Shown: positions 4,439 through 60,961 of the stretch, piece by piece
Numbering within the stretch: the first letter of the stretch is position 1
Layout of the letters: every line of letters begins with the position of its first letter
Sequence record: PP449093.1
Direction: 5' to 3' (one strand)
From: Escherichia coli phage phiS
Length of the DNA: 64,000 bases
Notes under the pieces: model-generated
The model's database searches: none
What the model was told of the DNA's origin: nothing
Seen by the model: the letters and a program-made list of their open reading frames with translations, nothing else
Program-made: the position numbers and the translations under genes

Positions 4439-4681
4439 TTATTCGTCGTCTTCTTTGTCTTTTTTATCGTCTTTGCGATCTTCGTCTTCGTCGTCCTCAT
4501 CTTCCATATCTTCTTCATCATCGCGGTCTTTTTCTTCTTCACCTTCGATCATGATACTGGATGCGATTTCGACACGCTGGGATTCGATGATCTGGGCTTT
4601 TTTAGCCTCCATGATCTTATCAAATTCTTTTTCGATCAGCGTTAGATCGCGAGTTTTAATTGCTTCGATAAATTGTTTCAT
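4439..4681 (-). CDS. 67: prohead core protein gp67
   Basis: 80-aa ORF with extremely acidic C-terminus (DDEEDMEDEDDEDEDRKDDKKDKEDDE); same size and position as T4 gp67. Confidence 0.7.
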   Translation of the reverse strand: MKQFIEAIKTRDLTLIEKEFDKIMEAKKAQIIESQRVEIASSIMIEGEEEKDRDDEEDMEDEDDEDEDRKDDKKDKEDDE

Positions 4682-6247
4682 TTAAAAATCCTCTATTTCA
4701 TCGGGAGTTTGTTTAAAGCGCGGATCGTTCGCTTCTTCTTCGATCTGTTTCTTCTCGGTGTCCATCTGGTCATCGGTATATTTCAGAATGTCACGCATCA
4801 CTGTCTGGTTAGAGAAATATTTACCAATGTAAGGTGTAATACGTTCGATTAGACCGATTCGACGTTCTAAAATTTCCGCGTCTTTAACTTCTGTATAGTA
4901 AGAGTCCCGATGGAAAACCACCTTGATATTATTTATTTCACGATCCCAATCGTCTTCCGTAATTACATTTTTGAGAATCAGATTATATTTCAGAGGATCG
5001 CGCAATACTTCCGAAAACTGTGATTGCAGAGTTCTAATGAATTTCGAAAATTCCAACTCATCGCGAGTAATTTCTGAACCGTCACCACCGATCACCATAT
5101 TAGCATCGGAGAGATTACTACGTGACAATGGCACACGCAACGCTTCATACAACTTACGGTTAAAGTAGCGAATATCATCGATATCACTCATACCGGATGC
5201 ACCGGGTAAAGTAGTAACGTCGGTGATTGCTTTACCATCTCGACGCTGTAACCAGTAGTCCTCTGTCATTGATAGATTTGCTTGCTGGTTTTTAAGTTTA
5301 CCAGTCGATGCATCATAAACAACGCGGTTTTTAAAAGACTGTGCCACTGAGTTCATGTGCTGTGCAGCCTTGCGGTTGTTCATGTTTCCGGTATCAATAA
5401 AGAACACTCGGCGTTCCGGTGCACGCGTGATACGATAAACGACCATTGCGTCTTCCAACAATTTAAGCTGGTTTGCTGGCTTAACCGCCCGATGCAAATA
5501 ACCAATGATATATTTATCATCGCAATCCATCAAGCCGCTGTGAGCGTATGTAATAGCACTACGCGGGATTTTAACGCGACTATTAGGAGAGAATACTTGA
5601 CCACCTGCGCAATAAGAGCTATTACCTACAGTGTAGATGAAATATTCTTTCGTTGCTTTATAAATTTTACCTTCCGGTGTGTCTTCTGTAATGATCTCTC
5701 GAACGTATTCAAGATTTCGTGGATCAAGCTGGCGTAATTCTACGATACCATCTTTTGGATTTTTGCCGATGATTTTATGGAAGAAAATACGAGAATCGAC
5801 ATACCAGCGACGGAACATATCCTGACCACGCTTATCAAACTGGATAGTGTTTAAAAGATCTTTAAATTCTTCATGAATGCGCTCTTTTACAGATTCACTA
5901 AAGCCAGTCGCCTCAAGATTTAATGAAACAACGTCATGACCGTCTTCGAATACAATAGCATCGTTAACGATATTTTGTACAGCGTTTTCGACTTCATGGT
6001 TATTCATCAAACCGCGATATGTGTTAACTAATTGCTTAGTTGTACTGATTTTCTGGTCGGTGCTGTAAAATTGCTGGGTAAGAGAGTTCCACGCGCTAGC
6101 AGGTGAATTATCATTAATTTCTACTTCCGTAGCACCATCATTGTTTTTAGGTGCGGCGATAGACTCTGCTTTATCTTTAATTTGTTCTTCGTATTTGTCG
6201 TTGTCAAAATCAGCCCAACGCGCAAGCATTTTTAATCTACTAAACAT
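4682..6247 (-). CDS. 20: portal vertex protein gp20
   Basis: 521-aa ORF; size and synteny with T4 gp20 (524 aa). Confidence 0.9.
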   Translation of the reverse strand: MFSRLKMLARWADFDNDKYEEQIKDKAESIAAPKNNDGATEVEINDNSPASAWNSLTQQFYSTDQKISTTKQLVNTYRGLMNNHEVENAVQNIVNDAIVFEDGHDVVSLNLEATGFSESVKERIHEEFKDLLNTIQFDKRGQDMFRRWYVDSRIFFHKIIGKNPKDGIVELRQLDPRNLEYVREIITEDTPEGKIYKATKEYFIYTVGNSSYCAGGQVFSPNSRVKIPRSAITYAHSGLMDCDDKYIIGYLHRAVKPANQLKLLEDAMVVYRITRAPERRVFFIDTGNMNNRKAAQHMNSVAQSFKNRVVYDASTGKLKNQQANLSMTEDYWLQRRDGKAITDVTTLPGASGMSDIDDIRYFNRKLYEALRVPLSRSNLSDANMVIGGDGSEITRDELEFSKFIRTLQSQFSEVLRDPLKYNLILKNVITEDDWDREINNIKVVFHRDSYYTEVKDAEILERRIGLIERITPYIGKYFSNQTVMRDILKYTDDQMDTEKKQIEEEANDPRFKQTPDEIEDF

Positions 6248-37388: not shown

Positions 37389-37655
37389 GTGAATATGTCC
37401 AATCAGCATGAACAAATGATTAATGTCCTGAAAGTACGTCTGTTTGACACTCAAGAAAAGGCCGCATTCTTAGAAGGCCAACTGAAAGATCGTGAGCGTG
37501 TATTGATGGAACTGGTACGCATTCTGGGTATTCAGCCAGACGAAAACGGCACTGTTTCCCTTGATGCTATTGTCGAAGAAGTGAAAGCACTTCTCCCTAA
37601 AGACGAAGCCGCAGAAGAAGCAGAAGAGGAAGTAGAACTGATCAAGGAGGCTTGA
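37389..37655 (+). CDS. 57A: tail fiber assembly chaperone gp57A-like
   Basis: 88-aa helical, acidic-tailed ORF between gene 1 and 57B; position and size. Confidence 0.5.
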   Translation: MNMSNQHEQMINVLKVRLFDTQEKAAFLEGQLKDRERVLMELVRILGIQPDENGTVSLDAIVEEVKALLPKDEAAEEAEEEVELIKEA

Positions 37656-38122
37656 TTATGACCCCGTTTAGAGAATCCGTTAAAGGTACATATGCGGCGG
37701 TTAAATTCACTGAGGATACACTAGACCGCATTGAAAAATTGCAGGAGTTCTACGATCTGCCTAATGCCGTTCCTCGTGATAAACTGCATAGCACTATCTT
37801 ATATTCTCGTGTCTATGTTCCGTTTATCCCAGAAGAAGGGGAGAAGTTCTTAGGCTCTCTATGCCATCTGAAAGTGTTTGAAACTCAATCCGGTACTAAT
37901 GCGCTTGTGCTGGCATTTGAAAGCGACTACATGCAATTCAGACACGATATCGGCACTGCTTTAGGTGCGACGTGGGATTATCCTGAATATGTACCGCATA
38001 TCACGCTTTCTTATGATGTTGGTGCGCGTAAATTTGGCACTGACCTAGAGTTTGATTTAGAGATTGTCCGATCTCATGAGTATGTCGAAGATCTAGACCT
38101 GGAGTGGACGACCAAACTGTAA
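37652..38122 (+). CDS. acb1: 2H phosphoesterase, Acb1-like (gene 57B) cyclic-oligonucleotide nuclease
   Basis: 156-aa ORF with two H-x-T/S-x motifs (HSTIL and HITLS) typical of the 2H/LigT fold; position of T4 57B, which I recall as anti-CBASS Acb1. Confidence 0.7.
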   Translation: MIMTPFRESVKGTYAAVKFTEDTLDRIEKLQEFYDLPNAVPRDKLHSTILYSRVYVPFIPEEGEKFLGSLCHLKVFETQSGTNALVLAFESDYMQFRHDIGTALGATWDYPEYVPHITLSYDVGARKFGTDLEFDLEIVRSHEYVEDLDLEWTTKL

Positions 38123-38129
38123 TTTTATA

Positions 38130-38160
38130 CCCCGAAAATTTTTCGGGGTTTTTTGTTTTT
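38130..38160 (+). terminator. Rho-independent terminator
   Basis: Hairpin CCCCGAAAATTTTTCGGGG followed by a long T-run. Confidence 0.7.
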
Positions 38161-38165
38161 AGGTG

Positions 38166-38194
38166 TTGACAACCATAAACGACTATAGCATAAT
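38166..38194 (+). promoter_or_regulatory. early promoter cassette copy 1 (TTGACA-17-CATAAT)
   Basis: Sigma70-like -35/-10 followed by conserved leader ATCGAAACGAAACAC and SD GGAGAATCAAA ATG. Confidence 0.6.
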
Positions 38195-38231
38195 GCACAT
38201 ATCGAAACGAAACACATTTAGGAGAATCAAA

Positions 38232-38609
38232 ATGATGATGATGTTTAAAGATAAGTTCGAATGTCACTACACCCGTAACTTTTACTTAGTATCCCGCTAC
38301 TACATTCATAAAGAAACTGGTACGCAAGTAGTTCTTGAATCTCACAGCGAAGTAGGATTCGATTCAACAAAAGTAGCAATTAGTGCTCGCTTCTGGGATA
38401 ACGGCAAATTTGCTTATATCGCTTGGAACGACGACGAAAATGTAATTACAGTAGCTTTCGGTGATGACTACTACACTAAAAAGACTTTCGATAGCAAGCC
38501 ATCAAATGAATACCTGAAAGCGTATGTGCAGCACATGTTCCAACGTGTTCTGACCGGAATGGAAATCAATGTCATGAAAGACATTGTAGACGAAGTAAAA
38601 TTTTCTTAA
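38232..38609 (+). CDS. hypothetical protein (125 aa)
   Basis: ORF trimmed to first ATG after the GGAGAATCAAA SD (MMMMFKDK...). Confidence 0.55.
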   Translation: MMMMFKDKFECHYTRNFYLVSRYYIHKETGTQVVLESHSEVGFDSTKVAISARFWDNGKFAYIAWNDDENVITVAFGDDYYTKKTFDSKPSNEYLKAYVQHMFQRVLTGMEINVMKDIVDEVKFS

Positions 38610-38615
38610 AAACAG

Positions 38616-38644
38616 TTGACAACATGAAACGGGGGTAGTAAGAT
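38616..38644 (+). promoter_or_regulatory. early promoter cassette copy 2 (TTGACA-17-TAAGAT)
   Basis: Same cassette architecture with palindromic spacer. Confidence 0.55.
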
Positions 38645-38675
38645 ACACCCACAAACAAACGAAAGGAGAATCAAA

Positions 38676-38834
38676 ATGAAATTTATCGGTAAAACTTTTA
38701 TGTTCGTAGCTGGTACTCTGTTTACTGCAACTCTGTTAGCTGGTGGCTTAGATATCTTTACTGCATTTGAAACTTTCGGGTATACTGTAGCATCGGGTGC
38801 TCTCTTCGGATTGGGTTTAGCGATTAGCAAATAA
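38676..38834 (+). CDS. small membrane protein (52 aa)
   Basis: ORF MKFIGKTFMFVAGTLFTATLLAGG... after SD AGGAGAATCAAA; hydrophobic; below ORF-track cutoff. Confidence 0.5.
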   Translation: MKFIGKTFMFVAGTLFTATLLAGGLDIFTAFETFGYTVASGALFGLGLAISK

Positions 38835-38843
38835 GGTGATAAT

Positions 38844-39047
38844 ATGGAATTTGATATGGTTAAAGCAAAATTTATGGGTAAGGATAAGAGCGGTAAAACA
38901 TTTGTTATTAATAGAACATTGTTTCGCTCTGACCTTAAGTGGGTAACACAACAATTTGCGGAAGTCAACGAGGCAGTTGTGACATGCTTCGTTGATGGTA
39001 AAAAAGTTTTTGAAATTGATCGTCGTGGGATGTCTAATGATCACTAA
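38844..39047 (+). CDS. hypothetical protein (67 aa)
   Basis: ORF with SD GGTGA upstream. Confidence 0.5.
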   Translation: MEFDMVKAKFMGKDKSGKTFVINRTLFRSDLKWVTQQFAEVNEAVVTCFVDGKKVFEIDRRGMSNDH

Positions 39048-39234
39048 ACTGTTTAGCAATACTTTGTTTCTGATTGTATTTGTTTTCTTTCTGTGTCTGA
39101 TGACCGGTGTTGTTACAGTAGGTAGCTATTCCGGTATTACCTTAGATGATTTTTGTGATCTTGTTTTAGTGTCGTTTATTCCTAGTCTACTGGTCGCTTT
39201 ATGTAGTGCTTTAATGTGGGTTTGTAAGCTATGA
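39037..39234 (+). CDS. small membrane protein (65 aa)
   Basis: Hydrophobic ORF MITKLFSNTLFLIVFVFFLCLMTG... Confidence 0.45.
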   Translation: MITKLFSNTLFLIVFVFFLCLMTGVVTVGSYSGITLDDFCDLVLVSFIPSLLVALCSALMWVCKL

Positions 39235-39341
39235 ACGAAATAGACCGAATGATGTTGATAGGTGGACCGGAGTCCACTAAATTTGATGCAATTCTTATTG
39301 CGTTGGGTTTTCTTATGATCTTTTGTATGGTTGCGCTATGA
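39231..39341 (+). CDS. small membrane peptide (36 aa)
   Basis: ATGA overlap with preceding gene; hydrophobic C-terminus ILIALGFLMIFCMVAL. Confidence 0.35.
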   Translation: MNEIDRMMLIGGPESTKFDAILIALGFLMIFCMVAL

Positions 39342-39562
39342 GTAGTATAAAATATTTCGCTTTCTTGTGCTTTATGATGTTCTTTACATTCTTAGCATGT
39401 GTTTTCTTTACCTGGCTTGCTCATGTTGATAATGCAACCGGACCGTTTTACTTCTTCTGTGTATTGTCTGTGTTGACTGGTGCTCTTGTTACGTGGATGA
39501 TTCGAGATTGTTATGGAATGTATAAGTTTGAAAAGACTCGACCGAAATTGGGCAAACGATGA
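39338..39562 (+). CDS. small membrane protein (74 aa)
   Basis: ATGA overlap start; two hydrophobic segments. Confidence 0.45.
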   Translation: MSSIKYFAFLCFMMFFTFLACVFFTWLAHVDNATGPFYFFCVLSVLTGALVTWMIRDCYGMYKFEKTRPKLGKR

Positions 39563-39741
39563 AATTATTTGCGTGGCTAATTATTTTAAATGTAATTGTT
39601 AAGACCGTTCTCGCTGGTCTGATGATGGCGCATAGCACCGAACCAGAAGAAGCATTAACGTATTTTGTTGCTTATGTGTTGGGATTCTTGCTTACTGCGT
39701 GGATGTGTGATGAATATCGAAGAATTGAGGTAAAACCATGA
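39559..39741 (+). CDS. small membrane protein (60 aa)
   Basis: ATGA-coupled ORF; hydrophobic. Confidence 0.45.
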   Translation: MKLFAWLIILNVIVKTVLAGLMMAHSTEPEEALTYFVAYVLGFLLTAWMCDEYRRIEVKP

Positions 39742-39956
39742 AAATGACTTTTTATATCTTAGCAAGTATCATGCTTGTGATCTCTTCTGCACTATTTGCA
39801 TTTCTTACCGTTTGGGGGATCTGTACTGATGCGAAGCCGTGGGATATCGTAGAAAATACGGTTATGTTTATTATTAGTGTCATGTGTCTTTTTGATGCAT
39901 TTAACTCTATCAAGGAAGAAGATCAAAAACGTCGCGAGAGAAAGCGATATAAATAA
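39738..39956 (+). CDS. small membrane protein (72 aa)
   Basis: ATGA-coupled ORF; two hydrophobic segments and basic C-terminus. Confidence 0.45.
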   Translation: MKMTFYILASIMLVISSALFAFLTVWGICTDAKPWDIVENTVMFIISVMCLFDAFNSIKEEDQKRRERKRYK

Positions 39957-39959
39957 TAG

Positions 39960-40106
39960 TGAACTAAAGACAGCGCGGTTAGAATGATTTGGACGTCACC
40001 TAGCCGCATTTATTACAGCGTATGTTGGCGATCCGGTACGCTAAAGCATTCACTTGCTAGGCCGCTAGCAGGTTGGAGACAAGGAAGATTCGCTACCTTC
40101 CCTATA
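39960..40106 (+). ncRNA. candidate structured small RNA (unclassified)
   Basis: 150-nt ORF-free segment with several inverted repeats (GCGGTTAG...CTAGCCGC, GCTAGGCCGCTAGC, GGAAG...CTTCC) ending at a strong terminator. Confidence 0.25.
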
Positions 40107-40132
40107 AGCCACTCTTCGGAGTGGCTTTTTTA
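40107..40132 (+). terminator. Rho-independent terminator
   Basis: Hairpin AAGCCACTCTTCGGAGTGGCTT followed by TTTTTAT. Confidence 0.7.
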
Positions 40133-40158
40133 TTGCCTAAAATTTTTTAAAAAAGTTG

Positions 40159-40187
40159 TTGACACCAGATCCGGCCTATAGCATAAT
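40159..40187 (+). promoter_or_regulatory. early promoter cassette copy 3 (TTGACA-17-CATAAT)
   Basis: Conserved cassette with leader ATCGAAACGAAACAC. Confidence 0.6.
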
Positions 40188-40233
40188 ACACCCATCGAAA
40201 CGAAACACACTTTCTTAAACGGAGAATCAAATT

Positions 40234-40419
40234 ATGGCACGTCGCATCACTAAAGCACTGAAAGCAGTAAGCAAAGAAAACGTAGTAGCTATTCTGGTAA
40301 TCTGGGGTTATAACGAAGAATCCGCTAAACAGAAAGTTGAAGCAGGGTTTGAACTGGCAGTAAAAGCAATGCCGAATGATGACTCTGTAGGACTGGCAAA
40401 CTATATTGCATATTTCTGA
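40234..40419 (+). CDS. hypothetical protein (61 aa)
   Basis: ORF after cassette SD GGAGAATCAAA. Confidence 0.55.
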   Translation: MARRITKALKAVSKENVVAILVIWGYNEESAKQKVEAGFELAVKAMPNDDSVGLANYIAYF

Positions 40420-40427
40420 TAAAAGTG

Positions 40428-40456
40428 TTGACAGGGGAGGATAACTCCCCTACAAT
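40428..40456 (+). promoter_or_regulatory. early promoter cassette copy 4 (TTGACA-17-TACAAT) with GGGGAG/CTCCCC palindrome in spacer
   Basis: TTGACAGGGGAGGATAACTCCCCTACAAT. Confidence 0.6.
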
Positions 40457-40485
40457 ACAAACATCAACGAAACGGGAGAATCAAA

Positions 40486-40707
40486 ATGATTAACTTTAAA
40501 GACGCAGCAAAAGAAATTATCGACTTTGAGCGTGAACTGTTTGAGATGGAACCAAATATGAGTAAACTGGAATTGGCTAACCAGATCTGGTGCTCTAAGA
40601 TGAATCCATCCGACCGCTTAGAAGTTATGAACATCGTAGGCGAAGTGAAAGGTAGTGCATTAATGAAACTCCGCGCTTGTCACGCTTACATCGCTGATCA
40701 ACTATAA
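40486..40707 (+). CDS. hypothetical protein (73 aa)
   Basis: ORF after cassette SD. Confidence 0.55.
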   Translation: MINFKDAAKEIIDFERELFEMEPNMSKLELANQIWCSKMNPSDRLEVMNIVGEVKGSALMKLRACHAYIADQL

Positions 40708-40716
40708 GGGGGTAAT

Positions 40717-40911
40717 ATGGGGGATAAACCATTAGTACAACTAAGAGTACGCTATAACCAGATTTTAGCATTACTTAAAGCTGAGGGTGTAGACCCATCG
40801 GACCGCGAGGCTGTAAAAGCGTGTCTATCTGATACGGTACAGCCAAAACATAATTTTGCTTGTTATATGTACTTTTACAATAGGTTGAATAGACCGTTTG
40901 AGTTTGAATAA
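40717..40911 (+). CDS. hypothetical protein (64 aa)
   Basis: ORF with SD GGGGG upstream. Confidence 0.5.
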   Translation: MGDKPLVQLRVRYNQILALLKAEGVDPSDREAVKACLSDTVQPKHNFACYMYFYNRLNRPFEFE

Positions 40912-40933
40912 CGTTAAGTGTTGAGGTGATACT

Positions 40934-41122
40934 ATGGAAGACCAAATTGAACAATTACGCGAATCCGCTAAAGAGCATGGTATGAGCGAAGCGTTTGTAG
41001 AATGGTTTATCTCTAAAAAGGTTGATTCCTGCGGGTGCTTTAACTTCCTTACTATGTCCATTATGTGGGAAGGTTGGAAAGGTGCTGTAGAAACTGCTCT
41101 AGAAATTATGAAAAAAGACTAA
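40934..41122 (+). CDS. hypothetical protein (62 aa)
   Basis: ORF with SD GAGGTG upstream. Confidence 0.5.
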   Translation: MEDQIEQLRESAKEHGMSEAFVEWFISKKVDSCGCFNFLTMSIMWEGWKGAVETALEIMKKD

Positions 41123-41130
41123 AAAAGTTG

Positions 41131-41159
41131 TTGACACGCGAGAGGGTGTATAGCATAAT
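41131..41159 (+). promoter_or_regulatory. early promoter cassette copy 5 (TTGACA-17-CATAAT)
   Basis: GGGTGTAT/ATACACCC palindrome spanning the -10. Confidence 0.6.
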
Positions 41160-41201
41160 ACACCCATCGAAACGAAACACGAACTACTAAGGAGTATCAA
41201 A

Positions 41202-41528
41202 ATGAAACCAGTATCTGTTAAAGTTATCTTCTCTGAATCTTCTGTATTCGCTAACGCAAACGAAGTATTCCACTTCGAAGACTTCGAGCGTAAAGCACAG
41301 GACGCGGCAGCAAAAGCCTATGAAAGCGAATATGACAAAACTCAAATCGAGGTTACTTTCGAAAACGGCACTACTTACGCTTGCCGCCTTGACCTGGGTG
41401 ATCGTCTGTCTGGCTTCCGTCACCATGTAGAGAAGACAATCGCTTTCTCTAAAACCGAAAAAGGAAAACACTACTTTTCTGTTTTCGGTACTAAAAATCT
41501 GGATTTCTTGAAAACTGTTTCTTTCTAA
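41202..41528 (+). CDS. hypothetical protein (108 aa)
   Basis: ORF after cassette SD AGGAGTATCAAA. Confidence 0.55.
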   Translation: MKPVSVKVIFSESSVFANANEVFHFEDFERKAQDAAAKAYESEYDKTQIEVTFENGTTYACRLDLGDRLSGFRHHVEKTIAFSKTEKGKHYFSVFGTKNLDFLKTVSF

Positions 41529-41536
41529 GGTATATT

Positions 41537-41719
41537 ATGAAAAAGATTAATTGGTTAGCGAACATAGGCGCGGTCTGCGCCTTTAACATCCTCGGATGGA
41601 TAATGTTACATTTTGATGAGCGAGTTTCAAAATGTGAGGGTGCATTGATTCTCGGATCTGCTAGCATATTCATTATGCTGTATGTAATTGCTGTTGACTT
41701 AAGCCGCGAGGATTGTTAA
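41537..41719 (+). CDS. small membrane protein (60 aa)
   Basis: Hydrophobic ORF. Confidence 0.45.
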   Translation: MKKINWLANIGAVCAFNILGWIMLHFDERVSKCEGALILGSASIFIMLYVIAVDLSREDC

Positions 41720-41720
41720 T

Positions 41721-41915
41721 ATGAATATTACTAATACGGCTATCGGATTTTCTAGCGCCTTTGCTAGTTTCTTTGCGCTGGTCTGTATGTTTGTTTTTAT
41801 TCCTGTTGTATATCTTGGATATTGTGATATTGAAATTGCATTGATTGCTGGGATCTATATGTGGGTTGCGGTCTTTGTTCTTTCTGTTATAATGTGCAAG
41901 ATTATTGACCATTGA
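41721..41915 (+). CDS. small membrane protein (64 aa)
   Basis: Hydrophobic ORF, two predicted TM segments. Confidence 0.45.
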   Translation: MNITNTAIGFSSAFASFFALVCMFVFIPVVYLGYCDIEIALIAGIYMWVAVFVLSVIMCKIIDH

Positions 41916-41937
41916 TTAACTATGTGAGGATTATACT

Positions 41938-42258
41938 ATGAGCAAACTGTTTGAAACTCCGCGTGAAATTCTAATTGATAAGCTGAAACAACGTGGTTTT
42001 AAAATCAAAGATGCAACCAAATACAGCCGAATTGATGAAATTAAGTTGCATTCTCTTGATGAACTGGTAGAATATGTTGCGGCAGTGGCTGATCCGCAGT
42101 TTGATGTGATTGTAGGTGACGTTGAATATCTCGATAATGTATATTCATTCTTCACTTATGGTAAAATTGTGTCTGTGAAAATATCATTCTGTGAAAATGT
42201 GGAGGTGCTTGCTAGTGAACCAGAAAAACCAACTGACAACGGTCCTACGGCAGCGTAA
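41938..42258 (+). CDS. hypothetical protein (106 aa)
   Basis: ORF preceded by TGAGGATTATACTATG initiation motif. Confidence 0.55.
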   Translation: MSKLFETPREILIDKLKQRGFKIKDATKYSRIDEIKLHSLDELVEYVAAVADPQFDVIVGDVEYLDNVYSFFTYGKIVSVKISFCENVEVLASEPEKPTDNGPTAA

Positions 42259-42529
42259 CAAGGAAGACCGTCTGATTTATGCGCTGGCGGTTATCCTTGA
42301 AAAAGAATTACCGGATCTTGATGTAGTTTTTACTGACCGACCAGTAGGCCAACGTTACGGAGGATATGACAGCCTAGTTTATCCATCATATAGCATTGAA
42401 ATGTGGGTAGAAGATTTTAAAAACTTGGCTGATACATCTAAACCGCTTTATTTGTGGGATGTTGAGTATAATTGCGATCCTAACTGGCCTGGCATTAATG
42501 TTTATGCGTCTATGACTTTAAAGGTGTGA
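42191..42529 (+). CDS. hypothetical protein (start uncertain, GTG/ATG within upstream gene)
   Basis: Long ORF overlapping the preceding gene by about 65 nt; true start not resolved. Confidence 0.4.
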   Translation: MKMWRCLLVNQKNQLTTVLRQRNKEDRLIYALAVILEKELPDLDVVFTDRPVGQRYGGYDSLVYPSYSIEMWVEDFKNLADTSKPLYLWDVEYNCDPNWPGINVYASMTLKV

Positions 42530-42531
42530 TA

Positions 42532-42690
42532 ATGGTTGAACAAATGTTAACTTCAATGGTAATGGCTTTCTGTGTGGGTGTTGTTCTGTTTGCGATGATT
42601 CCAAAAGACCGAATGAATCTGCTTGTTGCTGTGTGTTTGGGTGTGGTTAGCGGTTGGTGTGGAATCGTTCTAGAACACGCTCTGCGATGA
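42532..42690 (+). CDS. small membrane peptide (52 aa)
   Basis: Hydrophobic ORF MVEQMLTSMVMAFCVGVVLFAMIP... Confidence 0.4.
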   Translation: MVEQMLTSMVMAFCVGVVLFAMIPKDRMNLLVAVCLGVVSGWCGIVLEHALR

Positions 42691-42751
42691 TTAACAATGC
42701 GGGTAGGGTAATGTACTACCCGCACTAAATTAGCTCACTGGAGGGCTTTCT

Positions 42752-42940
42752 ATGGCGTTTTGTCTATGGTTGCTTATAGTATGCTTTGTAATTGGTTTAT
42801 GCTTCTATACTGGCGTATTCTGTTTTGTCGCCTGGATAGACGGCGGATTCTCTAATATCATTTTGCTTGCAGGATCAATTGCCTCGTTTCTGTTTATTTG
42901 GCTATTTTCATATTTGATTGGTGAATGGGATTTATTATGA
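42752..42940 (+). CDS. small membrane protein (62 aa)
   Basis: Hydrophobic ORF. Confidence 0.45.
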   Translation: MAFCLWLLIVCFVIGLCFYTGVFCFVAWIDGGFSNIILLAGSIASFLFIWLFSYLIGEWDLL

Positions 42941-43116
42941 ACAAATATATGTTTTGGGCGACCATTGCCTATGTTGTGATTGCGGTAGTATGGGGATTCT
43001 GTGTTATTGTCGCTTCTCTGATCTGGTGGGAATCACTTGGTGCGGGTTGTCTGATTAGCGGCGCATCATGTCTTATCACTGGCGTGATTGTTGGTTTTCT
43101 TGTGTCGGAGGCTTGA
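42937..43116 (+). CDS. small membrane protein (59 aa)
   Basis: ATGA overlap start; hydrophobic. Confidence 0.45.
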   Translation: MNKYMFWATIAYVVIAVVWGFCVIVASLIWWESLGAGCLISGASCLITGVIVGFLVSEA

Positions 43117-43118
43117 CA

Positions 43119-43334
43119 ATGGTTTTCTTCGGTCTTATTATAATGGTGCTTAATGTCATTTGTGGCGTTGCTATGTTAGCTATGGCCTTTACTGTTCCTA
43201 TGTCTGTTGATAGCGCCGCATCCGTAGGTGTGTTGGGAATTGTAAACCTGTTTACCGCCCTAGCATGTTGGATCACCGGACGCGATGAGGTAATGTATTA
43301 CTTTTATAAACGTAAACAGAGAAAAGGAAAATAA
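43119..43334 (+). CDS. small membrane protein (71 aa)
   Basis: Hydrophobic ORF with basic C-terminus KRKQRKGK. Confidence 0.45.
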   Translation: MVFFGLIIMVLNVICGVAMLAMAFTVPMSVDSAASVGVLGIVNLFTALACWITGRDEVMYYFYKRKQRKGK

Positions 43335-43335
43335 T

Positions 43336-43527
43336 ATGAAATTTGCATTTGGTTTTACCGTGATGTTGATTATTGCTCTGAGTATGTGTACCGGAATGCT
43401 TGTATTTGGTCTTGCAAACGGGTTTAGCATTTATAATAATCAGTGGGTTGATTGGGGAATGGTTGTCGTTAATGCGATCCTGATTGGTGCTAATACAAGA
43501 AATCTATGCAGGATCGCCGGAATCTAA
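43336..43527 (+). CDS. small membrane protein (63 aa), immediately upstream of endolysin
   Basis: Two hydrophobic segments; adjacent to the endolysin gene. Confidence 0.45.
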   Translation: MKFAFGFTVMLIIALSMCTGMLVFGLANGFSIYNNQWVDWGMVVVNAILIGANTRNLCRIAGI

Positions 43528-43555
43528 ATATTATCACTCACAAAGGGGGTGAATA

Positions 43556-43945
43556 ATGTTTAAATTATCTCAAAGAAGCAAAGATCGGCTTGTTGGTGTA
43601 CATCCTGATCTGGTAAAAGTCGTTCATCGTGCGTTAGAACTGACTCCGGTCGATTTTGGTATTACGGAAGGTGTGCGTAGTCTAGAAACGCAAAAGAAAT
43701 ATGTTGCGGAAGGTAAATCTAAGACTATGAAATCTCGTCATCTTCACGGTTTCGCGGTTGACGTTGTAGCGTATCCGAAAGATAAGGATACATGGAACAT
43801 GAAATACTACCACATGATCGCGGATGCATTTAAACAAGCTGGTCGAGAATTGGGTGTTCCTGTTATCTGCGGTGTTGATTGGGTTACTTTTAAAGACGGA
43901 CCGCATATGGAACTCGATAAAAAGGTATATCCAGACCCGGTATAA
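43556..43945 (+). CDS. endolysin, L-alanyl-D-glutamate peptidase (peptidase M15 family)
   Basis: 129-aa ORF with T5-endolysin-like blocks VHPDLVKVVHRALELTPVDFGITEGVRS, SRHLHGFAVDV and DGPHMEL (Zn-binding H...D...H). Confidence 0.75.
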   Translation: MFKLSQRSKDRLVGVHPDLVKVVHRALELTPVDFGITEGVRSLETQKKYVAEGKSKTMKSRHLHGFAVDVVAYPKDKDTWNMKYYHMIADAFKQAGRELGVPVICGVDWVTFKDGPHMELDKKVYPDPV

Positions 43946-43990: not shown

Positions 43991-44566
43991 ATGGCTTTTA
44001 AATATTGGGATGAATCCCTACAAAACGAGATAAAACTTAGATATGCTCATATAGAGGGTATCTTATATTATAGAGTCGATAGTAAAGCTATCAAAGGACG
44101 ACCATTAGGGAGTAGATATAAACACGGCGATTTAGTTAAAGTCAGAACAAATAAAGATGGTCATCTTAGATTTTGGCATAGTAGAGATGACGGTCTTCCT
44201 AGAGTTCATCTATTCGTGCATAGGGTTGTTTGGTTTCTGGAACATGGGACGCAAGTTAGATTAATTGATCATATTGACGGGAATCCTGCTAATAACAATC
44301 CTCCAAATCTTAGGGAGGCAACCGACGCGCAAAATCAACACAATAGAAAGAAGAAGTCTAAAAAGTTTTCTAGTGTGTATAAGGGTGTTAGTAAGTGTAA
44401 CAGGAAGGATTTGCGTAAGAAATGGAGAGCTAGTATAATGGTCAACCTAAAAAGACATGTTCTTGGACAATATGACACAGAAATCGAAGCTGCAATCGCT
44501 TATGATAATGCAGCTAGGAAATTTTATGGAGAATATGCTCTATTGAATTTCCCAGATCCAAAATAA
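43991..44566 (+). CDS. HNH homing endonuclease with AP2 domain
   Basis: HNH motif IDHIDGNPANNNPPNLREATDAQNQHN and AP2-like YKGVSK...IEAAIAYDNAARKFYGEYALLNF; paralog of 35535-36068. Confidence 0.8.
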   Translation: MAFKYWDESLQNEIKLRYAHIEGILYYRVDSKAIKGRPLGSRYKHGDLVKVRTNKDGHLRFWHSRDDGLPRVHLFVHRVVWFLEHGTQVRLIDHIDGNPANNNPPNLREATDAQNQHNRKKKSKKFSSVYKGVSKCNRKDLRKKWRASIMVNLKRHVLGQYDTEIEAAIAYDNAARKFYGEYALLNFPDPK

Positions 44567-45249: not shown

Positions 45250-45666
45250 ATGGAATTTAAAGCAATTCAAATCATGAAAGGTGAGCATAAAGGTACTATT
45301 ATTGGTGGACACTTCGCGCCTATGATTCTGGTATCCGAACCGAAAGCACTGATCGGCGCTAAAGTAATTGTTAGTAAAACTTTCGCAGAAGACCATGTGA
45401 TCACCGCAGAAGACGTCGATTCTCTGGCACTGCACACAACTAGCTTCCGTCCTGTTTATATCGAAGATAGTATTGGTATGAAGCGAGGATCTCAACATCT
45501 CAACGTCAATGTAATGAATCGCGACCTTCTTCTGGATGCGGTAGAGAATCCGGATAAATATCCATCACTAACTGTACGAATTTCAGGCTATGCGGTCAGA
45601 TTTAATGCACTTACGCCGGAACAACAACGAGATATCATTACCCGAACCTTCACGGAAGCAATGTAA
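45250..45666 (+). CDS. grcA: autonomous glycyl radical cofactor (GrcA/YfiD-like)
   Basis: C-terminus GSQHLNVNVMNRDLLLDAVENPDKYPSLTVRISGYAVRFNALTPEQQRDIITRTFTEAM carries the glycyl radical motif RxSGYAVRF and closely resembles recalled E. coli GrcA. Confidence 0.85.
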   Translation: MEFKAIQIMKGEHKGTIIGGHFAPMILVSEPKALIGAKVIVSKTFAEDHVITAEDVDSLALHTTSFRPVYIEDSIGMKRGSQHLNVNVMNRDLLLDAVENPDKYPSLTVRISGYAVRFNALTPEQQRDIITRTFTEAM

Positions 45667-52358: not shown

Positions 52359-52686
52359 TGTGATTGAAATTATTATGAATCAATACCGAAACCGGATTTG
52401 GTCTGGACGTATCAAAGAAGAAAAGGCAAAACGGATCATCGAAAAATATGCTGAAAAGACTAAGCAAGCGCCAACGGCTAACAGAGTTATGATTCTTAAA
52501 TGTCTGGTGCTTTCAGGTGACGATATGCCGATTGATGCAGAGACAGCTACCGATTTTCATAAGACCTATCGTCAGTGTGATGTAATTTTTACTTCTGGCT
52601 TCGGTAGTTATGACTCTATTATGTGGAATTTAATGCACCTTGACGCAACGATCTGGGATGTACTTTCAGAGGAGGGTTACAATTGA
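52348..52686 (+). CDS. hypothetical protein (112 aa)
   Basis: Overlapping-start ORF. Confidence 0.5.
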   Translation: MQNDVIEIIMNQYRNRIWSGRIKEEKAKRIIEKYAEKTKQAPTANRVMILKCLVLSGDDMPIDAETATDFHKTYRQCDVIFTSGFGSYDSIMWNLMHLDATIWDVLSEEGYN

Positions 52687-60400: not shown

Positions 60401-60961
60401 ATGGTACAGAAAACGTATAAATTGTATCCGGCTAAGTCTTCAAATGATGCTGTTTTTGAACGAGGTCGTTATTACACTTTCCGTAATGCTGAGTCCGCAG
60501 AGGAATTTGTTAAACGCTATCCACAACATAACAAGTTCCTGTATGGTGTGCTTCACAAGGGCTTTAAAGTTCTGACTGTTAATGTTATGGGTAAAGTGTA
60601 TTTGGTAGAAACTCATGATTATGAGGGCGCGTCAATCATGATTGATGCCAGCGAGCGCAAATACTTTAAGCGTATCACTAAAAAGCAGTTTGAAGAAATG
60701 AAGCCAGTTAAGAAAGAAGAATCGCTGGAAGATCTGATTAACTTGTTTGCGAAGTCTTCTTTGGTATCATTGACGCTGGAAGATTTTAGCGTTGATAATC
60801 AGCTATACTTTAAAAATGCCGATGACCTGAAAGATTTTTTGATTGAGAATAAACCTAAGCTAGAAACCTATATCAAAGGTGAGATTAAGCGCATGGAACA
60901 TCAAGCAAAATATAGCGCAGATAAAGTAGCTGAACTGAAAGAGATCCAAAAGTCACTTTAA
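60401..60961 (+). CDS. hypothetical protein, family C (one N-terminal module plus coiled-coil tail)
   Basis: Preceded by GAGGATTATATTATG; N-terminal module and C-terminal tail LKDFLIENKPKLETYIKGEIKRMEHQ paralogous to 61025-62203. Confidence 0.55.
   Translation: MVQKTYKLYPAKSSNDAVFERGRYYTFRNAESAEEFVKRYPQHNKFLYGVLHKGFKVLTVNVMGKVYLVETHDYEGASIMIDASERKYFKRITKKQFEEMKPVKKEESLEDLINLFAKSSLVSLTLEDFSVDNQLYFKNADDLKDFLIENKPKLETYIKGEIKRMEHQAKYSADKVAELKEIQKSL

Follow-up and report, generated by a model that had tools for sequence, protein, structure and literature searches.

Do the many very small hydrophobic genes between 57B and the endolysin gene of Escherichia coli phage phiS serve lysis or some other end? 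The window analyzed (64,000 nucleotides of sequence record PP449093.1) belongs to a Krischvirus, an RB49/JSE-like T4-type coliphage with 97.9% identity to JSE. Direct reading gives 22 plus-strand genes from 57B (37652-38122) to the endolysin gene (43556-43945). Thirteen of these, encoding 36-74 aa, stand out for their strong hydrophobicity (GRAVY +0.32 to +1.81), and each has one or two Kyte-Doolittle segments, in agreement with the original prediction of mostly hydrophobic ORFs with one or two transmembrane (TM) segments. That prediction described a dense array of about 12 tiny membrane-protein genes; the small hydrophobic genes are present, but they form three blocks (g02 plus g04-g08; g14-g15; g18-g22) split by nine soluble genes, including dmd, g09-g13, and g16-g17, rather than one array. 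The TM genes, dmd, and the boundary genes are as follows, with TM segments assigned by hydropathy and ATGA coupling read from the sequence.

37652..38122, plus strand: 57B, left boundary, the anti-CBASS 2H phosphoesterase Acb1 (Pfam PF23474, E = 1.5e-51)
38676..38834, plus strand: g02, 52 aa, 2-TM hairpin, first in the dmd operon
38844..39047, plus strand: dmd, antitoxin against RnlA/LsoA, soluble, inside the first block (Pfam PF17587, E = 1.5e-14)
39037..39234, plus strand: g04, 65 aa, 2 TM, 11-nt overlap with dmd
39231..39341, plus strand: g05, 36 aa, one C-terminal TM, ATGA-coupled to g04
39338..39562, plus strand: g06, 74 aa, 2 TM and a basic C-tail, ATGA-coupled
39559..39741, plus strand: g07, 60 aa, 2 TM, ATGA-coupled
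39738..39956, plus strand: g08, 72 aa, 2 TM and a highly charged C-tail, ATGA-coupled, final gene in the operon
41537..41719, plus strand: g14, 60 aa, 2 TM (also TMHMM on RB49 ORF112)
41721..41915, plus strand: g15, 64 aa, 2 TM, allelic with RB49 ORF110 (35% identity; hhalign probability 97%)
42532..42690, plus strand: g18, 52 aa, 2 TM, two allele classes ~84% nt identical by genome comparison
42752..42940, plus strand: g19, 62 aa, 2 TM
42937..43116, plus strand: g20, 59 aa, 2 TM, ATGA-coupled to g19
43119..43334, plus strand: g21, 71 aa, 2 TM and a basic C-tail (KRKQRKGK)
43336..43527, plus strand: g22, 63 aa, helical hairpin, the proposed holin candidate
43556..43945, plus strand: endolysin, right boundary, M15-type peptidase (Pfam Peptidase_M15_4, E = 5.8e-8)

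The stop/start ATGA overlaps occur at all five predicted positions (39231, 39338, 39559, 39738, 42937), confirming that several ORFs are translationally chained, and the last small ORF (43336-43527) does adjoin the endolysin gene.

The TM genes are long-annotated early accessory genes of RB49/JSE-like phages, not new genes. Published TMHMM predictions cover 13 of these ORFs (Nolan 2006, Additional file 2, PMC1524935), placing segments at 7-29 and 33-50 in RB49 ORF124, the g02 orthologue, and at 5-27 and 37-54 in ORF103, the g22 orthologue; the record of phage W115 labels such genes "putative membrane protein". The interval is best read as one among several hyperplastic (accessory) regions of an RB49/JSE-like T4-type phage. 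It is the same system, in the same genus and with the same ORFs (RB49 ORF103-124), as the RB49/phi1 hyperplastic ORFan cassettes with early-promoter/stem-loop (PeSL) elements (Arbiol et al. 2010, PMC2839356; Nolan et al. 2006, PMC1524935), and the phiS window shares their PeSL repeats and their dynamics of insertion, deletion, and replacement. The portions of these two papers that were searched neither discuss the concentration of membrane proteins here nor assign it a function. Of the 20 novel ORFs that TMHMM scores as positive in RB49, 13 lie inside the equivalent 22 ORFs (Fisher's exact test, p = 5e-12).

The small membrane ORFs are real and conserved. Absence from related phages was looked for, and 58 Krischvirus records were found to carry them. 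Each TM gene other than g15 is an intact ORF in 9-11 of the 11 Krischvirus genomes compared; g15 is replaced in six, which have a different pair of 2-TM genes there. RB49-type genomes carry at this site ORF110 plus an additional 2-TM gene, ORF111, whose presence varies between genomes. Variable sites summed by codon position number 85/57/172, a third-position excess, and pooled dN/dS against a divergent relative is 0.25 for the TM genes. Together with the Fisher's test on RB49, this intactness, codon-position bias, and dN/dS indicate that the pattern goes beyond chance. Since the pooled value barely exceeds that of the soluble neighbors (0.20), it gives no sign of positive selection. The fastest-evolving member is g04 (82-90% nt identity across genomes, pN/pS 0.59; 64% aa identity to relative L014, dN/dS 0.72), and the most conserved is g06 (95% aa identity to L014, dN/dS 0.12). 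Values for other members include dN/dS of 0.11 for g08 and 0.18 for g07, and pN/pS of 0.10 for g21 and 0.07 for g02, which has its own PHROG (16462); g05 is intact in 11/11 genomes and, though uncalled on L014, is intact there as well (dN/dS 0.21). The four best-conserved members (g06, g08, g21, g02) resemble housekeeping accessory genes more than genes engaged in an arms race.

These TM proteins are genus-restricted orphans, with no homologues found beyond the genus and no paralogy found among members apart from g15 with RB49 ORF110. The only relatives of g06 among 5.8e9 proteins are at least 92% identical, the only ones of g08 and g22 are at least 83% and 86% identical, respectively, and a full HMMER search of 1.84e9 representatives found nothing for g21 beyond its own cluster.

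The genes lie downstream of early promoter motifs, and no late promoter was found across the region, either by our own scan or in published predictions. The signals identified are:

38616..38644, plus strand: sigma-70-type early promoter for g02-dmd-g04..g08 (TTGACA-17-TAAGAT, 10/12 matches)
40106..40127, plus strand: intrinsic terminator closing the dmd operon (9-bp stem, then TTTTTATT)
41131..41159, plus strand: early promoter in a PeSL cassette, for g13..g18 with read-through into g19..endolysin (TTGACA-17-CATAAT, 11/12 matches)
42699..42723, plus strand: stem-loop between g18 and g19 (GCGGGTAG/CTACCCGC) without a U-tract

The PeSL cassettes are repeated at 38166, 40159, and 41131; leader sequences are shared, and the arrangement matches the published account of PeSL elements. 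The first promoter corresponds to RB49 Pe:60244 and the second, which belongs to the 61-nt repeat family D1, to Pe:57746; the next early promoter predicted in RB49 lies only at 52389 (Nolan 2006, PMC1524935). The terminator is annotated in GEC-3S and Makalu, and leading into it is a strongly conserved ~150-nt non-coding element (39957-40105) that carries no annotation. Across genomes the stem of the 42699..42723 element is kept while its loop varies, and the element is probably an attenuator.

In the model we propose, host sigma-70 RNA polymerase would transcribe the region right after infection from the repeated PeSL cassettes, giving three polycistronic units: g02-dmd-g04..g08; g13..g18; and, past the stem-loop, g19..g22 with the endolysin gene. 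Several TM genes lack a Shine-Dalgarno of their own and would be translated by termination-reinitiation at the ATGA overlaps, and the product would be thirteen mutually unrelated small proteins. From the computed positive-inside pattern and hydropathy, we infer that these enter the inner membrane mostly as helical hairpins with both termini inside (N-in/C-in) and a short, acidic loop in the periplasm, a geometry that would restrict them to helix-helix contacts inside the membrane.

Could such proteins be lysis components, as originally suggested, above all for g22 by position? On this reading g19-g22, or g22 alone, would provide a holin, pinholin, or antiholin paired with the adjacent endolysin in a classical cassette. 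Like a holin gene, g22 stands directly 5' of the endolysin gene and is apparently co-transcribed with it; g06, g08, and g21 share with class II holins and pinholins (e.g., S21) a length of ~70 aa, two TM helices, and a basic C-tail; and g06 and g21 have sub-threshold Pfam matches to holin superfamily III models (E = 0.03-0.96). In T4-group phages (checked on RB14), e.2/e.3/e.4 and tRNA.4 occupy the same 57B-to-endolysin interval and are also predicted membrane proteins immediately upstream of the endolysin gene e, but they are larger (120-160 aa), fewer (4/14 versus 13/22 genes here), and without sequence similarity. We nevertheless consider a lysis module very unlikely. The promoters upstream are all of the early sigma-70 kind, and a holin made early would endanger the phage. 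The endolysin, annotated in Whisky as an L-alanyl-D-glutamate peptidase, is soluble and lacks an N-terminal TM, SAR, or signal sequence; a pinholin would therefore fail to release it. g22 has a short tail of only +2 charge, no TM gene matches a holin family above cut-off, and no g22 relative was found beside M15 endolysins beyond the genus. The AlphaFold2 model of g22 has helices at 2-29 and 36-61 (pLDDT 64), and its fold search returned no match at E <= 0.001. T4 holin T is a 218-aa protein with a large periplasmic domain. RB49 has a T4-type holin t at the canonical place after the tail-fiber genes, and it further encodes antiholin rI, rIIA/rIIB, and the spanins pseT.2/pseT.3 outside the interval. 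Because Krischviruses carry these functions elsewhere, the positional case for g22 is unsupported, and a holin role for it is very unlikely. Given co-transcription with the endolysin gene, g19-g22 may have some part in lysis timing.

Another possibility, which we judge unlikely but less so, is that the hairpins bind and modulate host inner-membrane machines (transporters, respiratory complexes, FtsH/HflKC, the divisome, lipid II enzymes), redirecting metabolism rather than fighting defenses or rival phages. Bacterial small membrane regulators such as AcrZ and MgtS provide a model, and proteins with almost no extramembrane residues must act by intramembrane contacts. Early transcription, as judged from promoter motifs, and strong purifying selection on g02, g06, g08, and g21 (dN/dS 0.07-0.14) fit this idea, as does the under-representation of novel-ORF regions in clone libraries, which suggests host toxicity (Nolan 2006, PMC1524935). 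Conserved host targets, however, predict wider spread among coliphages of the family than the one genus to which these proteins are confined, and genomes that are nearly identical differ by the replacement, duplication, or breakage of several members. It is highly doubtful, too, that the genes are merely young or marginal: de novo or decaying small ORFs gathered in a hyperplastic region, tolerated, weakly selected, and of little individual function. T-rich sequence would easily encode hydrophobic helices, and in these kilobases T is abundant on the coding strand (AT skew -0.11 to -0.21); the lack of homologues and paralogs, dN/dS of 0.72-0.77 for g04 and g02 against a divergent relative, and the breakage of g19 in two genomes point the same way. 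Yet dN/dS is at most 0.28 in at least one comparison for 11 of the 12 comparable TM genes, g04 being the exception (0.59 and 0.72). At synonymous divergence of 0.2-1.0, a relative still has an intact ORF for every TM gene (counting the ORF110/ORF111 pair for g15), and the number of TM segments is kept in almost all orthologues.

With moderate confidence, we regard the TM genes as encoding fast-turning-over early inner-membrane accessory proteins for phage-host or phage-phage conflict. Evolution of this type is suggested by lower identity to the divergent relative (63-95%, versus 81-100% for soluble neighbors), the g15/ORF110 alleles, the presence or absence of ORF111, the g18 allele classes, and the history of g19, which is duplicated in JK32, frameshifted in Whisky, and carries an indel in PHB13. 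T4 Imm, an early superinfection immunity protein of 83 aa with two TM helices, offers a likeness as a small inner-membrane protein of a T4-type phage without enzymatic domains. Even at E = 10, tblastn with Imm had no hits in the window or in 100 kb of RB49, and the TM genes have no relevant Pfam match. A scan of ~90% of a Krischvirus genome turned up neither an Imm nor an Sp homologue, so no provider is known there for the exclusion functions of these two proteins. A literature search found no described coliphage small TM protein that blocks a membrane defense effector.

The neighborhood also favors a conflict role: the counter-defense proteins Acb1 (whose L014 counterpart has a precomputed match to the same family, PF23474) and Dmd (46% identical to T4 Dmd) are accompanied by an LPD25-domain protein. 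The association with Acb1 and Dmd is a weak argument, because cassette recombination shuffles gene order in the region. T4 has inhibitors of GmrSD-type restriction in its internal proteins IpI and IpII, and ipI sits in the 57B-to-e interval of the T4-like phage RB14. In T4, dmd likewise heads an early operon and is co-transcribed with another defense inhibitor, the anti-ToxIN gene tifA (Srikant et al. 2022, PMC9391042); in phiS, dmd is translationally chained to g04-g08. TifA (61.4), however, is soluble and unrelated to g04-g08, and the T4 dmd neighbors are not membrane hairpins.

By context, superinfection exclusion, immunity, and inhibition of membrane-bound defense effectors, which the original prediction also listed, are more plausible than lysis. 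We infer that lysis in these phages is handled by the T4-type holin T, antiholin RI, and spanins encoded elsewhere, and that the TM proteins would be dispensable factors that change the envelope to exclude competing phages or neutralize membrane-acting host defenses.

A megablast search with positions 38600-43600 matched 60 phage records, all of them Krischvirus (RB49/JSE/phi1-like T4-type coliphages), with JSE the best match at 97.9% identity across the entire query. Gene order is identical in the annotated loci of JSE and GEC-3S: gene 1, 57A, 57B, some 22 small 'hypothetical' genes that include dmd and 55.3, the endolysin gene and vs.8. Other Straboviridae fill the same 57B ... e ... vs.8 interval with different genes, namely internal-protein genes, tRNAs and e.x genes, and the 57B-to-endolysin interval thus keeps its syntenic position but is hypervariable in gene content. 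It belongs among the 'hyperplastic regions' reported for RB49 and phi1 (Arbiol et al. 2010, PMC2839356). The plus-strand genes between 57B and the endolysin gene are numbered here g01-g22, with g03 being dmd.

Genes and other elements of the interval and its downstream side
37652-38122, plus strand: 57B
39957-40135, plus strand: conserved non-coding element
41202-41528, plus strand: g13, soluble protein
41721-41915, plus strand: g15, transmembrane (TM) protein
41938-42529, plus strand: g16 and g17, soluble proteins
43336-43527, plus strand: g22, TM protein, orthologue of RB49 ORF103
43556-43945, plus strand: endolysin gene
43991-44566, plus strand: HNH and AP2-domain homing-endonuclease gene, just past the endolysin gene
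45250-45666, plus strand: vs.6

Gene starts were set from annotated relatives and every gene was translated. Thirteen of the 22 products (g02, g04, g05, g06, g07, g08, g14, g15, g18, g19, g20, g21 and g22; 36-74 aa) are strongly hydrophobic, with GRAVY values of +0.32 to +1.81; 12 of them carry two hydrophobic helices and g05 a single, C-terminal one. The original prediction of a dense array of membrane-protein genes holds for the presence of these 13 genes but not for their continuity, as they form three blocks split by dmd, g09-g13 and g16-g17. All five of the predicted ATGA overlaps (39231, 39338, 39559, 39738 and 42937) were found in the sequence, and further tight junctions occur at dmd/g04 (11-nt overlap) and, as TAATATG, at g14/g15 and g21/g22. 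No Shine-Dalgarno sequence is recognizable ahead of g05, g06 or g07; translation of each is presumably coupled to that of the respective upstream gene.

Hydropathy and the published TMHMM analysis of the RB49 orthologues agree that the proteins are membrane proteins, as had been proposed, and this is already on record. Nolan et al. 2006 (PMC1524935) list TMHMM segments for RB49 ORF103, 104, 106, 107, 110, 111, 112, 118-122 and 124, and 11 of these genes are labeled 'putative membrane protein' in the GenBank record of phage W115. Because of that table and that annotation, neither the ORFs nor their membrane character are new: both are known from databases and a 2006 supplementary table. Our literature searches found no paper on the cluster and nothing specific on Krischvirus membrane proteins or on the blocking of membrane effectors by phage TM proteins. 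The clustering itself is not a composition artefact, because 13 of the 20 TMHMM-positive novel ORFs of RB49 fall within ORF103-124 (Fisher's exact test, p = 5e-12). By the same hydropathy criterion, other genera have fewer membrane genes in the equivalent interval than the window does (Lw1, 3/22; phiAS4, 3/15; RB14, 4/14; CC31, 6/14).

The soluble genes between the blocks have features of their own. The product of g13 contains an LPD25 domain (large polyvalent-protein-associated domain 25; Pfam E = 3.3e-14) and is strongly conserved, at 97% identity in a divergent relative from a metagenome, the contig L014; LPD domains reportedly characterize the 'polyvalent proteins' that mobile elements encode. 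The genes g16 and g17 share 44 nt; g17 starts at a GTG at 42215, and both genes are orphans that match no Pfam family at E <= 1.

The distribution of charges suggests a common topology for the membrane proteins. Of the 12 two-helix proteins, 10 carry their lysine and arginine residues at the termini, with g14 and g18 ambiguous; the tails of g06, g08 and g21 are strongly basic, and the inter-helix loops comprise 1-15 residues that are acidic or uncharged. By the positive-inside rule, this pattern predicts N-in/C-in hairpins with almost nothing outside the bilayer, and because so little would be exposed, any activity of the hairpins would have to operate through intramembrane contacts.

Transcription signals in the interval
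38166, 40159, 40428 and 41131: sigma-70 consensus promoters from a motif scan, 11/12 matches
38616: sigma-70 consensus promoter from a motif scan, 10/12 matches
38155-38235, 40138-40231 and 41110-41205: repeat families D1-D4, with adjacent terminators
38129-38149 and 40106-40127: intrinsic terminators
42699-42723, plus strand: g18/g19 intergenic hairpin
43113-43141, plus strand: sigma-70-like site spanning the g20 stop and g21 start

All five promoters sit in repeated cassettes of 30-60 nt that carry a common leader, GGAGAATCAAAATG; these correspond to the promoter-early stem-loop (PeSL) cassettes of Arbiol et al. 2010 (PMC2839356). The interval has the makeup of a PeSL-flanked ORFan region in two respects: an AT-rich tract, a sigma-70 consensus promoter and a stem-loop lie between ORFan modules, and the genes are database orphans with presence/absence or replacement polymorphism among close relatives. 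The promoters coincide with the published predicted early promoters of RB49 at 60694, 60244, 58699, 58430 and 57746. In those RB49 predictions, no early promoter follows 57746 until 52389, and no late promoter lies between 48756 and 64518. Our motif scan likewise found no late promoter upstream of the endolysin gene. The sequence TATAAATA occurs in this part of the window as a single copy, located at 39948 where g08 ends, and is absent between 39956 and 51092.

From the promoter and terminator motifs, one predicted transcription unit would run from the promoter at 38616 through g02, dmd and g04-g08 to the terminator, and another from the promoter at 41131 through g13-g18 and the hairpin at 42699-42723 to g19-g22 and the endolysin gene. 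This hairpin (GCGGGTAG ... CTACCCGC) combines a conserved stem with a variable loop and lacks a U-tract; it probably represents a promoterless attenuator of the PeSL type. The sigma-70-like site (TTGACA-17-TATTAT, 11/12) could provide a separate early transcript for g22 and the endolysin gene. It is conserved in 11 cultured genomes, a conservation that is uninterpretable because the site lies inside coding sequence.

About 150 nt of non-coding sequence separate the stop codon of g08 (39956) from the terminator at 40106-40127. They are 96-99.4% identical in all 58 of 58 Krischvirus records, and the element (39957-40135) is left unannotated in nearly every one. It is still 94% identical in L014, where the dS of the adjacent g08 is 0.87. 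One- and two-nucleotide indels rule out a coding sequence. The RNA is predicted to fold into several hairpins (MFE -59.7 kcal/mol, z = -3.4); RNAalifold detected no covariation, the sequences varying too little for any to show. No Rfam family matches the element above threshold, and it neither is a tRNA nor resembles the tRNA/rnaC/rnaD region of the T4 group; TATAAATA stands directly upstream. We regard it as a candidate for a small RNA or for a structured 3' UTR; of everything in the interval, it has probably received the least description.

The position of g22, directly upstream of the endolysin gene, had made it a holin candidate. It does encode a small membrane protein by hydropathy, and TMHMM places segments at 5-27 and 37-54 of RB49 ORF103. 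An AlphaFold2 model of low confidence (pLDDT 64) has two helices, at 2-29 and 36-61; searching this model with Foldseek against BFVD gave no match at E <= 0.001, a two-helix hairpin holding little fold information. No holin family was found for g22 in Pfam (E <= 1) or NCBIfam, and its PHROG, 15016, is without an assigned function. Its tail is short, with a charge of +2. Among 50,697 phage records and 5.8e9 proteins, no relatives of g22 were found beside M15 endolysins outside the genus. The predicted upstream promoters are solely of the early, sigma-70 type. RB49 has a T4-type holin gene, t (RB49p254), at the canonical position after the tail-fibre genes, and also encodes the antiholin rI (p086), rIIA/rIIB and a spanin pair, pseT.2/pseT.3. 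Moreover, the endolysin is an M15-type peptidase without an N-terminal hydrophobic segment; it needs a large-hole holin, which T supplies. With early promoters only, no family or fold match and t, rI and spanins encoded elsewhere, the designation of g22 as a holin by position is unsupported. The suggestion of spanin-like components gains no support either, since none of the 13 TM proteins, with their short loops, has a periplasmic domain and the RB49 spanins are annotated at pseT.2/pseT.3.

Just past the endolysin gene, the homing-endonuclease gene is present in the window, JSE, Whisky and JK32 and absent from RB49, phi1, GEC-3S, W115, Makalu_003, SSG23 and PHB13. Further on, vs.6 encodes a stand-alone glycyl-radical domain protein (Pfam Gly_radical, E = 1.9e-14), annotated in some records as 'autonomous glycyl radical cofactor'.

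Each of the 13 TM proteins matches solely its own small, single-genus PHROG without an assigned function, and none matches a Pfam or NCBIfam model above cut-off; sub-threshold matches reflect TM composition only. In a tblastn search of 50,697 phage records, matches were limited to 58 Krischvirus records, with a sensitivity reduced by the SEG filter and by the length of the query, in which the 13 proteins were concatenated. When g22, g08 and g06 were used in word-seeded searches of 5.8e9 proteins, only Krischvirus-like sequences came back, none below 83% identity, and a full HMMER scan of 1.84e9 representatives with g21 returned its own cluster and one spurious repeat protein. Expansion of a gene family was rejected: all-vs-all BLASTP and hhalign relate only g15 to another protein, RB49 ORF110 (35% identity). 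This absence of mutual similarity indicates a set of independent orphans, so far as sequence and profile comparisons can detect.

We compared the window with ten Krischvirus genomes (n = 11) and with L014, a 170-kb contig. Apart from g15, for which six genomes carry a replacement, every TM gene has kept its length and an intact reading frame in 9-11 of the 11 genomes, and TM segment count is kept in nearly all orthologues. Variable sites sum to 85, 57 and 172 at the three codon positions, and pN/pS per gene ranges from 0.07 to 0.59. The whole array is kept in L014, where gene calling had overlooked g05 and g06, and an ORF110/ORF111 pair stands at the g15 site. The TM genes have a pooled dN/dS of 0.25 against L014, compared with 0.20 in the neighboring soluble genes. 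The TM genes evolve faster, given their 63-95% amino acid identity to L014 versus 81-100% for the soluble neighbors.

Alleles also turn over among close relatives. In RB49, phi1, GEC-3S, W115, JK32, PHB13 and L014, g15 is replaced by its homologue ORF110 plus an extra, unrelated two-TM gene, ORF111 (in RB49, the replaced stretch is 4590-4996 of locus L007), with both flanks more than 95% identical between genomes; ORF111 is gained or lost between genomes. Two allele classes exist for g18, and g10/g11 show allelic polymorphism between close relatives. The least stable member of the array is g19, which is partially duplicated in JK32 (locus L009, 5837-6291), frameshifted into a 101-aa ORF in Whisky (locus L006, 5641-5946) and altered by an indel in PHB13.

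Taken together, the TM genes very probably encode real, early, membrane-inserted accessory proteins. What such inner-membrane proteins would do is best explained by conflict, in that they may exclude rival phages or blunt host defenses acting at the membrane; we judge the chances of this role to be evenly balanced. It is suggested by context: counter-defense neighbors, the LPD25 domain of g13, fast turnover, allele replacement and the lack of a detectable Imm or Sp homologue. Two known counter-defense genes stand at the head of the region: 57B, an Acb1 (anti-CBASS phosphodiesterase) family member (Pfam E = 1.5e-51) called 'RNA ligase' or 'hypothetical protein' in most records, and dmd (Pfam E = 1.5e-14), which encodes the antitoxin acting on RnlA/LsoA. 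In T4, dmd is co-transcribed with tifA, which encodes a ToxIN inhibitor (Srikant et al. 2022, PMC9391042); the dmd-neighboring genes of the window show no homology to T4 61.4 (tifA), sp or 61.2. The T4 internal proteins IpI and IpII are inhibitors of GmrSD-type restriction, and RB14, a T4-like phage, has an ipI gene between 57B and e. T4 Imm had no tblastn or blastp match at E <= 10 in the window, in RB49 1-50 kb and 114-164 kb or among the 13 TM proteins; Imm_superinfect was absent from Pfam scans of the TM proteins, and neither the window nor 100 kb of RB49 yielded a homologue of T4 Sp. Since these regions hold no homologue, the Imm and Sp exclusion functions appear to have no known provider in Krischvirus.

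Against a conflict role stands the lack of any positive-selection signal among the TM genes. The high conservation of g02, g06, g08 and g21 inside the genus would fit equally well with modulation of a conserved host membrane machine, which we consider a rather unlikely rival. An accessory role of g19-g22 in lysis timing would draw on their predicted, motif-based co-transcription with the endolysin gene and on a parallel in T4-like phages, which keep the membrane-protein genes e.2-e.4 just 5' of e, as g22 precedes the endolysin gene here; we think this improbable. Within the conflict reading, a bolder proposal, and an unlikely one, is that the three blocks form the membrane-directed arm of an anti-defense and exclusion island, each unrelated hairpin acting on a different membrane-embedded effector or blocking rival DNA entry. 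The hairpins might have been born de novo from T-rich sequence; their targets could include the TM effectors of CBASS, Pycsar, retron and Abi systems and small pore-forming toxins. Such an arm would complement the soluble Acb1 and Dmd, encoded by the same early transcripts.

In practical terms, the annotation 'holin by position' can be dropped, and the array can be provisionally resolved into three early transcription units. Much of the gene content of T4-type phages that lacks an explanation consists of small hydrophobic orphans, and this holds for the therapeutic phages JSE and phi1 too. If exclusion or defense inhibition proved true for even a few of the 13, they would represent a class of intramembrane phage-host interaction with very few characterized examples and would help account for host-range differences among nearly identical phages.
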